DNA of 64,000 nucleotides from Chloroflexota bacterium (GTDB taxonomy: Bacteria; Chloroflexota; Anaerolineae; Anaerolineales; E44-bin32): NCBI GenBank assembly GCA_022561215.1, contig JADFRQ010000011.1, positions 1,068 to 65,067 of the forward strand. Reading direction: 5' to 3'. Below, piece after piece: positions 2,084 through 8,561 of this stretch; position 1 is the stretch's first letter, and each line of letters begins with the position of its first letter. Position numbers and translations under genes: made by a program. The notes under the pieces are model-generated. The model saw nothing but the letters and a program-made list of their open reading frames with translations, made no database searches and was not told where the DNA came from.

Positions 2084-3174
2084 AACAACACACTTGGCAA
2101 TTGCTGACAGCGCTCATGGGTCTGGCCGCATTAATTGCGGGATGTTCTCCTCAATCTTCCGAGCCAACGCAATTGGAGCCCACGGCGACAAAAGCGCCGT
2201 CCACTGGGGTTGTGGCCACTGCGGTTCCTGAAGTAGCAACCCAGGATGAGATCGATCAATTGCTCACTGATCTTCAGGCGACACCTGTGCGTTTTGTGTT
2301 TCCGACGCCGGATCCGCGTACTGGTCCTGACTGGAGGCCACCACCCTACGATGTTCCTCTGGCGCTGAGACCAGAAGATCATTTTTATTTTCGAAGACCG
2401 ATACCATCCAATAATGTTAATTGGCCCGATCCCACCTATCGTTATGGAAGTACCTTTTTTGGTGATCTCTCCATTCATACTGGCGTTGATATCGGCGCTG
2501 ATCGGGGCGTACCGGTATTGGCCGCTGGGCCGGGCGAAGTGGTCTGGACAGGTTTCGGCCTCTATCGTGGAATAGAGGATCCGGACGATCCATACGGTCT
2601 CGCGGTTTCCATCCGGCATGATTTTGGACATGCCGGCAAAAGGCTCTATACAGTTTATGCTCATATGGATTCGGTCGATGTTTGGCTGGGCCAGATGGTT
2701 GTCGCTGGCGAGAAAATTGGAACCGTCGGGGATACTGGCCAAGCAAGCGGGCCACACTTGCATTTTGAAGTCAGGCTGGGAAGAAACGATTTCTTTGGTT
2801 CGAGAAATCCTGAGCTGTGGATGGCTCCACCGGAGGGATATTCGGTCCTTGCAGGCCAAATAACCAATACCTACGGTGTGCCACTTACCGAACAACTTAT
2901 TCAGATAAAAAATATCGAAACCGGGCAGCGGTGGGATGTGTGGACTTATCTGCAAACACTTGCCAACCCCGACGAGCGTTATCTAGAAAATTTTGTTATC
3001 AGTGATCTGCCAGCAGGGCCCTATGAAATTCGTGTCGATTATTTTGGTCTGAAGTTCATTACGCAGCTTTTGCTCGATCCGGGCAGGACCAATATCCTTA
3101 ATTTTAGAGGTTGGGATGGGTTTGAATATGAAAGCGATATTGATTCCCAGAATCAGCTAATTCCCCCTTATTAA
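2080..3174 (+). CDS. M23 (LytM) family metallopeptidase, lipoprotein
   Basis: Lipobox-type signal LAALIAGCSP. M23 motifs HTGVDIGADRGVPVLAAGPGEV and GPHLHFEVRLG. ATGA start/stop overlap with the upstream gene. Confidence 0.85.
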   Translation: MKQHTWQLLTALMGLAALIAGCSPQSSEPTQLEPTATKAPSTGVVATAVPEVATQDEIDQLLTDLQATPVRFVFPTPDPRTGPDWRPPPYDVPLALRPEDHFYFRRPIPSNNVNWPDPTYRYGSTFFGDLSIHTGVDIGADRGVPVLAAGPGEVVWTGFGLYRGIEDPDDPYGLAVSIRHDFGHAGKRLYTVYAHMDSVDVWLGQMVVAGEKIGTVGDTGQASGPHLHFEVRLGRNDFFGSRNPELWMAPPEGYSVLAGQITNTYGVPLTEQLIQIKNIETGQRWDVWTYLQTLANPDERYLENFVISDLPAGPYEIRVDYFGLKFITQLLLDPGRTNILNFRGWDGFEYESDIDSQNQLIPPY

Positions 3175-4204: not shown

Positions 4205-4606
4205 ATGAAGAACTATACGATCGTTTTTGATGGAGGAAGTAAAGGCAATCCGGGGGAAGCATTCGGTTCATTCTTGATCGTTGAAGAGCAGGGACAATTG
4301 AGGACTCCGGTGCGTCTTCAGCTGGGCTATGCCACAAATAACGAGGCAGAATATTTGAGCCTTCTTTCTGCACTTGAAACATTGCTTGAAGAGTTAAAGG
4401 GAAGAAAAACAAAGCCAAAATCTGCGGCGTTAAAGATCTATGGCGATAGCCAACTGGTTATTAACCAGGTGAACGGTGATTGGAAGGCGAAAAGTTCTAA
4501 AATGAGATCCTATCGCGACAAAATCATCCGCTACCTCATTCGATTTTACAATGTCGAATCAATCCATCAATCAAGAAAAAAAACCGTAAAGATCCTGGGC
4601 CATTGA
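4205..4606 (+). CDS. RNase H family protein (RNase HI-like / RVT_3-type)
   Basis: FDGGSKGNPGEAFGSF, NNEAEYLSLLSALE and IYGDSQLVINQVNGDWKAK match the RNase H fold catalytic D/E/D layout. Confidence 0.7.
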   Translation: MKNYTIVFDGGSKGNPGEAFGSFLIVEEQGQLRTPVRLQLGYATNNEAEYLSLLSALETLLEELKGRKTKPKSAALKIYGDSQLVINQVNGDWKAKSSKMRSYRDKIIRYLIRFYNVESIHQSRKKTVKILGH

Positions 4607-4657
4607 CCCTCCAAATGCCATGTGGCATAATCCGCAAATCATTCCAATACATTAAAA

Positions 4658-4931
4658 GCGAGGACGGAGACGAGTACATCTGAATCGGAATTCAAGCGAA
4701 CTCGGGATGGTGGAAGCCGAGGAAAACCATCAGATTGAAAATCACTCCTGAGCAGCGACCTGAACAAGGAGCACTCCTTAACTAAGGAAGACGGGATCAC
4801 TCGCCGTTATCAAGAGTGGGGGTATTCGCGGTAGCGCCAGTACCTCACAAAGTGCCCATATTTTTTTGGGTATCAGGGTGGTACCGCGGGATAATTAAAT
4901 GCTCTCGTCCCTGAATGGGGCGAGAGATTTT
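4658..4931 (+). promoter_or_regulatory. T-box riboswitch leader, Ile specifier (AUC)
   Basis: Stem I spans 4658-4753, closed by AGGA/TCCT, with a GA/S-turn element GAGACGAGTA. Distal helix CTCGG/CCGAG carries loop GATGGTGGAAG. Specifier loop GAAA-ATC-A has ATC at 4741-4743. Conserved T-box sequence AGGGTGGTACCGCGG lies at 4875-4889. A terminator hairpin follows. Confidence 0.85.
4902..4931 (+). terminator. T-box expression-platform terminator hairpin
   Basis: 10-bp stem CTCTCGTCCC (4902-4911) / GGGGCGAGAG (4917-4926) with one G-U pair, loop TGAAT, then A-TTTT. Confidence 0.65.
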
Positions 4932-4950
4932 GATTCTAATCGGAGGATAT

Positions 4951-5190
4951 TTGATAACGGAACGACTGTGCCACAACGATGCAAACCGCAATCATTTCCA
5001 AGCGCATGTTGTGAAAACCGACGGCGATGCCATCCTCCTGAATCAGACAGCTTTTTATCCGGGAGGAGGAGGCCAGCCGGAAGATTTTGGTTTGATTCGA
5101 AACACAGCTGATATTGGCCGGATAAAAATTATAGAATTCAAGAGCAAGGGGAAAATCAATAAGCGTATCGTTATCTCCCTGGAGGTCTGA
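4951..5190 (+). CDS. AlaX-M-like N-terminal beta-barrel domain mini-protein (79 aa), or a gene remnant
   Basis: The ITERLCHNDANRNHFQAHVVKTDGDAILLNQTAFYPGGGGQPEDFGLI pattern matches the N-terminus of AlaX-M/L trans-editing proteins (L-Y-x-D-x-Y ... LD-x-T-x-FYP-x-GGGQP-x-D-x-G). GGAGG at 4942-4946 precedes TTG 4951. The ATG at 4915 lies inside the terminator stem. The stop is 2 nt before the ileS ATG. Confidence 0.5.
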   Translation: MITERLCHNDANRNHFQAHVVKTDGDAILLNQTAFYPGGGGQPEDFGLIRNTADIGRIKIIEFKSKGKINKRIVISLEV

Positions 5191-5192
5191 GG

Positions 5193-8100
5193 ATGGGCGC
5201 AATGTTTAAACCTGTTTCCAATAAGATCGATTTTATAGCGCAGGAACACAACATTTTGGAATTCTGGAGCAAAATTGGAGCATTTAATAAGCTTCGTCAA
5301 TTGCGGACCCATGCCCCCAGGTGGTCATTCATCGATGGGCCAATAACAGCCAACAATCCCATGGGGGTGCATCATGGCTGGGGACGTACCTACAAAGATC
5401 TTTTCCAGCGATTTAAGGCGATGCAAGGATATCAATTAAGGTATCAAAACGGATTCGATTGCCAGGGACTTTGGGTGGAGGTGGAAGTGGAGCGGGAGTT
5501 GGGCTTCACCTCGAAGCGAGAAATTGAGAAATTTGGCTTGGCGGATTTTGTGCTTATGTGCAAACAACGCGTGCTGAATTATTCTGCAGTCCAGACCGAG
5601 CAAAGCATCCGGCTTGGATTTTGGATGGATTGGAATGCCCCGCAGTTCTTGAGAAAACTTCGTGATCAACTGGGGGAGGATCCTCTCCGGGAAATTTCCG
5701 TAGATGGCCCTCAAGGAAAGGTGACCGATACGGTGGAAGGCATCGTTGGCAGGCTCGGTCTTCCTGAACTGGGTGGCTCGTATTTCACCTTCTCGGATGA
5801 GAACAATTACACCATCTGGACAGTCTTGAAGGCTTGCTTTGATAAAGGCTGGCTGTACAAAGGTCGCGATGTTATGCCATGGTGTTCCAGGTGTGGGACT
5901 GGTCTAAGCCAGCATGAAATTGTCACCGAGGGATATCGCGAGATCACACATGCGAGCATTACATTACGTTTCCCCCTTAAGTCTCGCCCAGGAGAAAACC
6001 TATTGATTTGGACGACAACGCCCTGGACTCTAACCAGCAACGTCGTCGCAGCGGTGGGCCCCGATCTTACCTATGTGCAGGTCCGCCAGGGTGAAGATAC
6101 CTACTATCTGAGTAAGGGAACATTGGGAATGCTCGAAGGTGATTATGAAATACTACGCGAGCTTGAAGGGCGAGAAATGGAGGGCTGGGAATACGAGGGT
6201 CCCTTCGATGAATTACCTGCCCAAATTGATAGCGGAGCTCCAGATGCGCACCGGGTGATCCTGTGGTCGGAAGTCGGCGAAGAGGAAGGAACCGGAATTG
6301 TGCACATTGCGCCGGGGTGCGGTGCGGAGGATTTTAAGCTGGGCAAGGAATTTGGGTTGCCGGTGATTGCTCCGCTGGATGAAAGCGGTGTATTTATAGA
6401 GGGATTCGGATGGTTAAGCGGCAGGAAGGAGCACGGAATTTCGCAGGCAATATTTGATGATCTGAAGCATAAAGCAAAAATTTATAAAATTGAGGATTAC
6501 GTGCACCGCTATCCGGTTTGCTGGCGCTGTTCGGAAGAGCTCGTATTTCGCCTTGTTGATGAATGGTTTATCTCAATGGGTGAGCAACTTGATAAGCCCT
6601 TTGAAGACATTACAGAGCATGAAAAAGAAAAGTACCTGCGCTACCAAATTATGGATGTTGTTGAGCAGGGGACAAATTGGCACCCTTCATTCGGACTTGA
6701 TCGCGAACTCGATTGGCTGCGTAACATGCAGGATTGGATGATTTCAAAGAAACGTTATTGGGGTCTGGCGTTGCCCATCTGGGAATGTAAAAATTGCGGC
6801 CATTTTGATGTGATGGGAAGCAAGAATGAATTGCGCGATCGGGCGATCGAAGGCTGGCAGGAGTTTGAAGGACACTCTCCCCATCGTCCGTACGTCGATG
6901 CGGTGAAGATCGAATGTTCCCATTGTGGTGAACTCGTTAGCCGAATCTCTGAGGTGGGCAATCCCTGGCTCGATGCTGGAATTGTGGCAATGAGCACCAT
7001 GCAATACAACAGTGACAGGGAATATTGGAAGAAATGGTTTCCGGCCAATCTAATCTCGGAAAGTTTTCCGGGCCAGTTTCGAAATTGGTTCTACAGCCTG
7101 CTGGCCATGAGCACGATTTTGGAGCGCAAGTCTCCATTCGAGCATGTCTTTACCTATGCAACCCTTCTCGCTGAAGATGGACGGGCAATGCATAAGTCTT
7201 GGGGAAACTCAATCGAATTTAATGAGGCTGCCGATAAGATGGGTGTGGACGTAATGCGCTGGCTTTACAGCAGCCATAAACCAGAAAAGGATTTGCTTTT
7301 TGGTTACGAGCAAGCAGACGAGATCCGCCGCAAGTTCCTGCTGCCACTATGGAATGTTTATAGTTTCTTTATCACGTATGCCAATATTGATGGCTGGGCT
7401 CCATCCGCGAATAAAGACGTGGAATACAGTCTGCTAGATCGCTGGATCTTATCTCGTTTGCAGGAATTGGTTAGCCGCGTCACCGCGAAATTGGAGGAAT
7501 ATCAGCCTGATGTCGCGACGAATGAAATAAATCATTTTCTGGAAAATTTAAGCAATTGGTATTTGAGGCGCAGTCGAAGGCGTTTTTGGGCGAAAACAGG
7601 CGCCAGCGGCGAATCGGACAGGGATAAGAACGCGGCCTACGAAACGCTGTATCAAGTACTGGAAACTTTGTCCCGTTTGTTGGCACCCTTTGTTCCTTTT
7701 GTGAGCGAGGTAATGTACCAGAATCTTGTGTGCAGCATAAACAAACGTATGCCTGAAAGTGTGCATCATGCGAAGTATCCGAAACCGGATACTGCATTTA
7801 TGGATCAAGAATTGGTACGCGAGATGGAACTGGTACTCCGGCTGGTGTCATTAGGCCATGCGGCACGAAATCGATCCAACGTAAAGGTTCGTCAGCCTCT
7901 TGCGGAAGCAGCATTCTCGGTTGGCATGGCATCCGAGGTGGATGTTGTCGAAAAATACGCTGAGCTGCTGCGCGCAGAACTCAATGTTAAACACATTCGC
8001 ATGCTTGATACGGCTGCGGAAGCAGTCGATTATGTGTTAAAGCCTCTTCCGCGCCAGCTTGGGAGCAAATATGGAGCAAAATTTCCGGCACTTCGATCCG

Positions 8101-8561
8101 CCATTCTGGCGCTTGAACCACAGAAAGCGGCGGAAACACTTCTTGCAAATACGGCGCTTGAGGTTGAAGTCGAAGGGTCGATCATCAACGTTCAACCCGA
8201 TGAAGTTGAAGTGCAGATTGAGGCGCACGCGGGTTTTTCTGTTGCATCAGATGGCGCGTACCTCGCCGCCCTGGTAACCAAACTTTCCCCCGAACTGCAG
8301 AAGGAGGGTTTGGCGCGCGAGGTTGTTCGCCGGGTGCAGGATTTACGCAAACAAGCACAGTTTGTCGTTGACGATCGAATCATTCTACAATACAAGGCCT
8401 CTGATTATCTGGGGGAGGCAATTGCCGAGAACAAGAATTATCTCATGCAAGAGACATTAACTGTCGTCCTTGAAAAACATGCTTCCCCACAAGGTGTTAT
8501 GGTTGCCGAGCATAGCTTTGATAGTGAAAGCCTGATAATCGCCATCCGCAAACACGGCTAG
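5193..8561 (+). CDS. ileS: Isoleucine--tRNA ligase (long, type-2-like form)
   Basis: 1122 aa. HIGH-region PMGVHHGWGR, KMSKS-like AMHKSWGNS, Zn-ribbon Cys pairs CWRC and CKNCGH...CSHCG, and CP1 editing region. Preceded by an Ile T-box. Confidence 0.97.
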   Translation: MGAMFKPVSNKIDFIAQEHNILEFWSKIGAFNKLRQLRTHAPRWSFIDGPITANNPMGVHHGWGRTYKDLFQRFKAMQGYQLRYQNGFDCQGLWVEVEVERELGFTSKREIEKFGLADFVLMCKQRVLNYSAVQTEQSIRLGFWMDWNAPQFLRKLRDQLGEDPLREISVDGPQGKVTDTVEGIVGRLGLPELGGSYFTFSDENNYTIWTVLKACFDKGWLYKGRDVMPWCSRCGTGLSQHEIVTEGYREITHASITLRFPLKSRPGENLLIWTTTPWTLTSNVVAAVGPDLTYVQVRQGEDTYYLSKGTLGMLEGDYEILRELEGREMEGWEYEGPFDELPAQIDSGAPDAHRVILWSEVGEEEGTGIVHIAPGCGAEDFKLGKEFGLPVIAPLDESGVFIEGFGWLSGRKEHGISQAIFDDLKHKAKIYKIEDYVHRYPVCWRCSEELVFRLVDEWFISMGEQLDKPFEDITEHEKEKYLRYQIMDVVEQGTNWHPSFGLDRELDWLRNMQDWMISKKRYWGLALPIWECKNCGHFDVMGSKNELRDRAIEGWQEFEGHSPHRPYVDAVKIECSHCGELVSRISEVGNPWLDAGIVAMSTMQYNSDREYWKKWFPANLISESFPGQFRNWFYSLLAMSTILERKSPFEHVFTYATLLAEDGRAMHKSWGNSIEFNEAADKMGVDVMRWLYSSHKPEKDLLFGYEQADEIRRKFLLPLWNVYSFFITYANIDGWAPSANKDVEYSLLDRWILSRLQELVSRVTAKLEEYQPDVATNEINHFLENLSNWYLRRSRRRFWAKTGASGESDRDKNAAYETLYQVLETLSRLLAPFVPFVSEVMYQNLVCSINKRMPESVHHAKYPKPDTAFMDQELVREMELVLRLVSLGHAARNRSNVKVRQPLAEAAFSVGMASEVDVVEKYAELLRAELNVKHIRMLDTAAEAVDYVLKPLPRQLGSKYGAKFPALRSAILALEPQKAAETLLANTALEVEVEGSIINVQPDEVEVQIEAHAGFSVASDGAYLAALVTKLSPELQKEGLAREVVRRVQDLRKQAQFVVDDRIILQYKASDYLGEAIAENKNYLMQETLTVVLEKHASPQGVMVAEHSFDSESLIIAIRKHG

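Follow-up and report, generated by a model that had tools for sequence, protein, structure and literature searches.

The window, that is, the whole 64,000-nt stretch of Chloroflexota DNA analysed here, carries ileS behind an isoleucine-specific T-box leader, and between the terminator of this leader and ileS lies a short open reading frame (ORF). The ORF has 79 codons. It runs from a TTG at 4951 to a TGA at 5188-5190, and its stop is 2 nt upstream of the ileS ATG at 5193. In these coordinates our results agree throughout with the initial annotation, which had described a GGAGG-TTG ORF of 79 residues ending 2 nt before ileS and had offered two readings of it: a decaying remnant of an alaX gene, or a retained stand-alone barrel that binds the tRNA acceptor end. 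The features of the region are listed in Table 1.

Table 1. Features between the leader promoter and ileS (positions are those of the window).
Feature	Position	Strand	Basis or remark
Promoter-like site, TTGACC-17 nt-CATAAT with TG	4603..4631	+	10/12 consensus matches
T-box leader, Ile-specific	4652..4915	+	RF00230, AUC specifier, tRNA-Ile(GAU) of the genome
Intrinsic terminator, stem 4902-4926 plus T-rich tail	4902..4936	+	Terminator scan, Rfam alignment
Shine-Dalgarno GGAGG of the former alaXM	4942..4946	+	Sequence
TTG start and ATA codon	4951..4956	+	All intact relatives start with ATG/GTG at the position of the ATA
Remnant of alaXM codons 1-49 (first three barrel strands, FYPGGGGQP)	4954..5100	+	Codon alignment with L116, NCBIfam positions 1-49
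Deletion junction	5100..5101	+	157 codons (471 nt) absent in frame, microhomology of at most 1-2 nt
Remnant of alaXM codons 207-235 and stop (short helix, last beta-hairpin of the editing core)	5101..5190	+	Profile and codon alignment
ileS Shine-Dalgarno GGAGG	5181..5185	+	Within the last codons of the remnant, 7 nt from the ATG
ileS (1122 aa)	5193..8561	+	Pfam matches of this gene on L118

The Rfam T-box model RF00230 matched the leader at 4652-4915 of the plus strand over the full length of the model (positions 1-219 of 219), and the score of 96.1 bits (E = 3.5e-21) exceeds the gathering score of 93. The specifier AUC lies at 4741-4743 in the loop context GAA-AUC-A. The T-box sequence, AGGGTGGTACCGCGG, occupies 4875-4889, and this element (AGGGUGGUACCGCGG) carries a UGGU bulge that is complementary to the ACCA end of tRNA-Ile. 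The source genome encodes a tRNA-Ile(GAU) with the 3' end ACCA, which fits both the specifier and the bulge of the leader. A terminator scan returned a single hairpin, whose stem at 4902-4926 has 10 pairs (seven of them G-C) and is followed by ATTTTGATT. According to the Rfam alignment, the 5' arm of this terminator (4902-4911) doubles as the 3' arm of the antiterminator. The sequence features that define a T-box are all found here: a score above gathering, a specifier codon with a matching tRNA, a UGGN bulge, and competition between antiterminator and terminator. The covariance score also bears out the initial annotation, which had placed the AUC, the T-box sequence and the terminator where we find them. 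Judging from its sequence, the leader appears to be a standard Ile-specific transcription attenuator that serves ileS. The T-boxes of Chloroflexi have been surveyed before (PMC2494555).

RNA folding of positions 4870-5215 revealed no structure beyond the terminator (z -1.9). The candidate promoter motif upstream of the leader is also kept in two related loci, L128 and L131. A separate ileS promoter inside the ORF was considered as well (5108-5137, 9/12 matches), but the match is no better than chance and was given no weight. The IleS protein of the window is 72-89% identical to the IleS proteins of its relatives over the first 300 residues.

For the ORF itself, TTG 4951 is the sole plausible start, 4 nt from its Shine-Dalgarno sequence. 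Gene callers report a longer form of 91 residues (cluster P0003, tRNA-synt_2c) that begins with an ATG at 4915-4917. This ATG lies within the terminator loop, is not preceded by a Shine-Dalgarno sequence and is absent in the closest relative, L116. The 91-residue form is an annotation artefact, and annotators should be aware that a tRNA-synt_2c protein of that length is called here from such a start.

The peptide is homologous to AlaXM proteins. The NCBIfam model for AlaXM, NF040865, matched it with an E value of 2.5e-18, so that the AlaX homology proposed for it proved significant in a profile search, with 66.7 bits, which is below the whole-protein cut-off of 300. Pfam tRNA-synt_2c scored 33.8 bits (cut-off 30.3), and archaeal AlaRS and AlaX-M chains in the PDB matched with E values of 4e-8 to 1e-7. 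What is preserved, however, is not one domain of AlaXM but its two ends. Residues 3-51 of the ORF correspond to profile positions 1-49, and residues 49-78 correspond to positions 205-234, the C-terminal end. The closest intact relative that we found, P0006 (235 aa; its DNA is in L116), served as the reference for a codon alignment, in which ORF residues 2-50 match P0006 codons 1-49 and residues 51-79 match codons 207-235. Compared with P0006, exactly 157 codons (471 nt; codons 50-206) are deleted and the reading frame is kept. The junction falls at an Arg codon, and the two break points have at most 1-2 nt in common; we do not claim a deletion mediated by direct repeats in the window genome because the junction shares no more sequence than that.

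The deleted stretch contains the parts of AlaXM that matter for catalysis. Profile positions 50-204 are absent from the ORF, including the HxxxH motif and the equivalent of the CxGxH motif. The residues H97, H101, D200, G201, G202 and H204, none of which varies among 42 intact proteins, are lost as well. The initial annotation was thus correct in stating that the catalytic HxxxH/CxxxH core is missing, as both motifs fall in the deleted codons 50-206. A protein with these losses cannot act as a deacylase. The same annotation had equated the ORF with the N-terminal barrel of AlaX. This was right as far as the homology of the N-terminal part with its FYPGGGGQP motif is concerned, but only about half of the barrel is there, and the 29 C-terminal residues had been overlooked. 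In the AlphaFold model of P0006 (pLDDT 92.5, pTM 0.89), six barrel strands lie between residues 14 and 85, and AlaX-S, which consists of the editing core alone, aligns from P0006 residue 94. The ORF retains three of the six strands (E14-23, E26-29 and E46-50), which falls short of a complete barrel. On the basis of this model, we do not expect the ORF to form a beta-barrel domain. AlphaFold2, with the same kind of alignment, modelled the mini form with a pLDDT of 59.9 and a pTM of 0.39; as a prediction, this does not prove that the peptide is unfolded.

Relatives of the window genome have an intact gene at this locus. In our first survey, full-length AlaXM was present in all 24 genomes of the same family (258-299 bits, just below the cut-off of 300), and ileS lay directly downstream of alaXM in each of the 23 family loci that were fetched. 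A T-box was found upstream of alaXM in 20 of the 21 loci searched, where four of the matches reach the gathering score and the other 16 have E ≤1e-5; all 20 of these leaders have AUC at the aligned specifier position, as does the leader of the window. The intact alaXM genes at the locus encode 233-243 residues. In a wider survey, the mini protein served as the query against all 98 genomes of the family, and at least 85 of them have the N and C parts separated by about 550-610 nt and in frames of at least 236 aa. The question of whether relatives keep an ORF of the same length in front of ileS can thus be answered: they do not, and at least 85 of 98 have the full-length alaXM instead. A profile search of the source genome for a second AlaX drew responses from alaS (with its editing domain) and thrS only. 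From the intact operon across the family loci, the ancestral order in this Anaerolineae family would be promoter, T-box(Ile), alaXM (~235 aa) and ileS. We found no description of an alaX gene under an ileS T-box in the literature that we searched.

The deletion is real and fixed, since the identical junction occurs in ten further assemblies from at least nine samples and several studies (ENA, Logan), all of them near-identical over 6 kb. These contigs also decide against a collapse by the assembler in a genome that in reality has an intact alaXM. Such an artefact would draw on nothing more specific than the general risk of metagenome-assembled genomes, and the junction has no repeat able to cause a collapse; we reject this explanation as hardly credible.

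In the window lineage, the former gene shows signs of decay apart from the deletion. An ATA stands in the place of the start codon, for which all relatives have ATG or GTG. A family-invariant Tyr (Y11 of P0006) has become Asn, and the Tyr of DYKSKG has become Phe. With the family consensus as outgroup, nine unique changes fall on the window lineage and two on the sister lineage, a difference that is not significant (p = 0.065); in IleS, which served as the control, the corresponding counts are 16 and 10. The 11 assemblies of the population differ at two sites within the ORF. Both changes are nonsynonymous and affect conserved residues, G41D inside GGGGQP and T52I (five of 11 assemblies) in a conserved NT, counts that are tiny. 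Over 2988 nt of ileS there are four such polymorphisms.

Other differences were seen among the same 11 assemblies. In the M23 peptidase, 10 SNPs and one indel of 3 nt lie in the N-terminal linker (window 2125-2212). A stretch of 89 nt is missing from the RNase H-like gene of L117 (window 4276-4364), and L123 has a 24-nt in-frame deletion in ileS (window 5786-5809).

The counterpoint to a gene remnant is that its frame is open to the native stop, with a good Shine-Dalgarno sequence (GGAGG) and an in-frame TTG at the old start site. The dN/dS ratios are also low. Against L116 (dS ~0.8) the N part has a ratio of 0.22, and the C part and ileS both have 0.07, but these values cover the whole path to L116, along most of which the gene was still intact in one or both lineages. 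Thus, the ratios fit a recent deletion as well as persisting constraint and do not separate the two. The excess of about seven replacements would amount to roughly a tenth of the window branch evolving neutrally. By a rough estimate, a frame of 79 codons would stay open by chance after so short a time in roughly two cases out of three, and the prior for a deletion to be in frame is one third. As an open frame is expected by chance over a short time, we do not take it as evidence of selection.

Short forms of AlaXM are not restricted to the window. HMMER was run exhaustively against 1.84 billion cluster representatives (50% identity) and returned 601 matches, and many of the best 150 of these were short. 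At least 14 of 20 short matches that we examined are fusions of the N- and C-terminal ends, and so is P0004. The junctions of these fusions differ, several of them lying at glycine-coding motifs. We looked up ten short forms. Nine of them are singletons and the tenth is a cluster with three members, and each occurs on one or two contigs. These sequences are sporadic deletion variants, to which the clustering at 50% identity lends prominence, and not a conserved family of mini-proteins.

The breaks of P0195, P0272, P0201 and others lie between the glycine runs FYPGGGGQP and DGGTH (…YPGG|THV…), so that alaXM may have a hot spot of recurrent deletion between two stretches rich in GGN. P0004 is a fusion of 99 aa with the junction …KNG|GTHV… on a contig of JGI 3300043331, where it adjoins an ABC transporter gene and not ileS. 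Three further matches, P0129, P0133 and P0147, were rejected as AlaXM forms; they are Ig-repeat or otherwise unrelated proteins that apparently matched through glycine-rich stretches.

It is in the light of these short forms that a functional mini-protein has to be considered, in which half a barrel and the C-terminal hairpin would together form a small domain of a new kind, still able to bind the tRNA acceptor end or IleRS. The open ORF, the low dN/dS over the whole path and the recurrence of N+C fusions in public data all speak for it. The fusions, however, all differ in their junctions and most of those looked up are single sequences, so that they do not amount to one protein found repeatedly. 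Orthologues of the same architecture in diverged species would be expected of a retained protein, and we found the window junction in one near-identical population only. Within that population invariant residues are replaced, the polymorphisms hit conserved residues and the start codon is lost; the peptide has three of six strands and a poor model where the intact protein is modelled well. At least 85 of the 98 family genomes retain the full gene, and others have lost alaXM entirely. We consider a functional mini-protein very unlikely. The second reading offered by the initial annotation, a retained stand-alone tRNA-acceptor-binding barrel, lacks support for related reasons: there is half a barrel, the rest is a C-terminal hairpin, its model is of low confidence, and it is confined to one near-clonal population. 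The proposed new class of stand-alone barrel proteins can be set aside.

More stages of decay are found in genus g10, which belongs to the same family. G091 (Anaerolineales), which carries P0195, has an in-frame mini form of 71 residues that is of independent origin. Its junction, FYPGG|THV, retains residues that are absent in the window and lacks residues that the window retains. The mini gene of G091 has its ATG and Shine-Dalgarno sequence intact, its stop abuts the GTG of ileS, and its neighbours are the same as in the window (Tricorn-like, M23 peptidase, Lactamase_B, RNase H-like, mini gene, ileS, lspA). In three other genomes, G095, G089 and G097 (L132, L133 and L135), the last 17-26 codons of alaXM alone survive (…YKSxGRINKRLxxELEE, stop). 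G095 and G089 have complete upstream sequence, and in these two the stub, which lacks an in-frame start, follows directly after the T-box terminator; the locus of G097 ends at a contig end upstream of the stub. G088 has no recognisable remnant of alaXM upstream of ileS. All five genomes of this series retain ileS.

The stubs explain why one end of the gene outlasts the rest. In the stub genomes, the Shine-Dalgarno sequence of ileS (GGAGGAG) is encoded by the final Leu-Glu-Glu codons of alaXM, and the ileS start is GTG. An ileS Shine-Dalgarno sequence within the last alaXM codons is common to the window, its relatives and the stub-only genomes. The 3' end of alaXM survives because it holds the ribosome-binding region of ileS. 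This overlap may also explain the constancy of the C-terminal LE(x) of AlaXM in the family.

The T-box leader itself is internally deleted in two g10 genomes, G091 (L128 3340-3500) and G099 (L131, reverse strand, ~2400-2560). L128 and L131 retain the promoter, the terminator hairpin and the first bases of stem I and have lost both the specifier loop and the T-box/antiterminator sequence. An Rfam search of L128 gave no T-box match even at E 10. In G091 and G099, the essential ileS gene thus stands behind a terminator without a visible antiterminator. Frameshifts in the alaXM of G041 were not counted as decay, as ileS at the same locus is frameshifted too and long-read assembly indel errors are the most likely cause.

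The G091 form bears on another explanation, namely that the ORF is a translated spacer. Translation from TTG 4951 to the stop would then be selected for the sake of ileS expression, through coupling, through unfolding of the ileS start region, or through protection of the long leader from Rho; the peptide would be useless, and only in-frame deletions would survive. The native stop-start geometry TGA-GG-ATG is kept in the window, as this explanation would have it, and the Shine-Dalgarno sequence and the TTG are present even though the spacer has otherwise diverged in a neutral-like manner (7/16 nt against L116). The former alaXM Shine-Dalgarno sequence is GGAGG in the window and GGAGC in nine of the 11 assemblies of its population (site 4946, G/C). 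Furthermore, both deletions known at this locus in the family, those of the window and of G091, are in frame, the latter with ATG and Shine-Dalgarno sequence kept. Two in-frame deletions could hint at selection for continued translation, but they are expected by chance in about one case in nine (~0.11). A wider tally is biased, as protein searches are blind to out-of-frame remnants. The ancestral ATG is lost, and the distance from the Shine-Dalgarno sequence to the TTG is very short. In addition, ileS has a GGAGG of its own close to its ATG, and it is preceded by a stub that lacks an in-frame start in G095 and G089 and by no remnant in G088; thus, ileS needs no upstream translated ORF in this family. 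Translational coupling of the ORF to ileS is possible but not needed, and we regard the translated spacer as improbable. Taking the alternatives that involve selection together, we give only a small chance to an ORF that is translated from TTG 4951 and kept open by selection, be it as a coupling or anti-polarity ORF or as a salvaged tRNA- or IleRS-binding peptide. If this were true, the two independent in-frame deletions would be the signature of that selection.

The best explanation of the 79-codon ORF is that it is a gene remnant. Relatives have an intact orthologue at the same locus, and the parts essential to the protein are lost in the window. The first of the two readings in the initial annotation, a decaying remnant of alaX, is therefore borne out by the intact alaXM of the relatives, by the 471-nt deletion and by the loss of the ATG. 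In our judgement, the ORF is very probably a young, non-functional alaXM remnant that arose by an in-frame deletion; the lack of function of the peptide and the recent date of the deletion are inferences.

We propose the following model for the history of the locus and for its present regulation. A single deletion of 471 nt took out alaXM codons 50-206 in the window lineage. Half the N-terminal barrel was lost in this way, together with almost all of the editing core and, within it, both metal-binding/catalytic motifs. By chance the frame was kept, and codons 1-49 were joined to the last 29 codons and the original stop. Later, the original ATG would have mutated to ATA. The second part of our model concerns the leader, which may work as other T-boxes do: uncharged tRNA-Ile(GAU) would pair with the AUC specifier and with the UGGU bulge, stabilise the antiterminator and block the terminator at 4902-4926. 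The remnant would merely be carried along in the leader transcript, with its 3' end kept as the ribosome-binding site of ileS.

These genomes amount to a natural experiment. In the window and in several g10 genomes alaXM has been gutted or lost, and the T-box (mostly) and ileS stay. Thus, alaXM appears to be a dispensable passenger gene of this operon that is not required for IleRS function.

How does this locus compare with known systems? The leader resembles the transcriptional ileS T-box leaders of RF00230, such as those of Bacillus and Staphylococcus ileS, in its match to the full model, its AUC specifier, its UGGU bulge, its mutually exclusive antiterminator and terminator, and its control of ileS. 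It differs from them in what follows: 261 nt of alaXM remnant separate the terminator from ileS in the window, and in its relatives the whole alaXM gene lies in between. Compared with the T-box(Ile)-alaXM-ileS operon of the Anaerolineae relatives, the window has the same leader, the same gene order and the same AlaXM family, but its alaXM is gutted. The ORF is also like ordinary internal-deletion pseudogenes, in that relatives have an intact orthologue, the catalytic motifs and the start are lost, and a single population carries it. Unlike them, its frame is open and a Shine-Dalgarno sequence and a TTG are present, hence its annotation by gene callers.

The last comparison is with AlaX-M itself (NF040865; Pyrococcus horikoshii PH0108, PDB 2E1B; PMC11260482, PMC12003907), to whose N-terminus (FYPGGGGQPxDxG) and C-terminus the two ends of the ORF are homologous. 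The family's intact AlaXM proteins (L006-L035, L116; P0006-P0009) differ from the textbook AlaX-M (PMC12003907) in one respect. They read QADGGTHV, with an Asp in place of the Cys of CxGxH, and this Asp (D200) is invariant in 42 sequences; the AlaX-M and AlaRS chains in the PDB have CGGTH where the family has DGGTH. The Cys of CxGxH has been described as universally conserved and crucial for editing (PMC12003907). An Asp for this Cys in an AlaXM that is co-regulated with ileS is, in our view, a more interesting question than the remnant itself.
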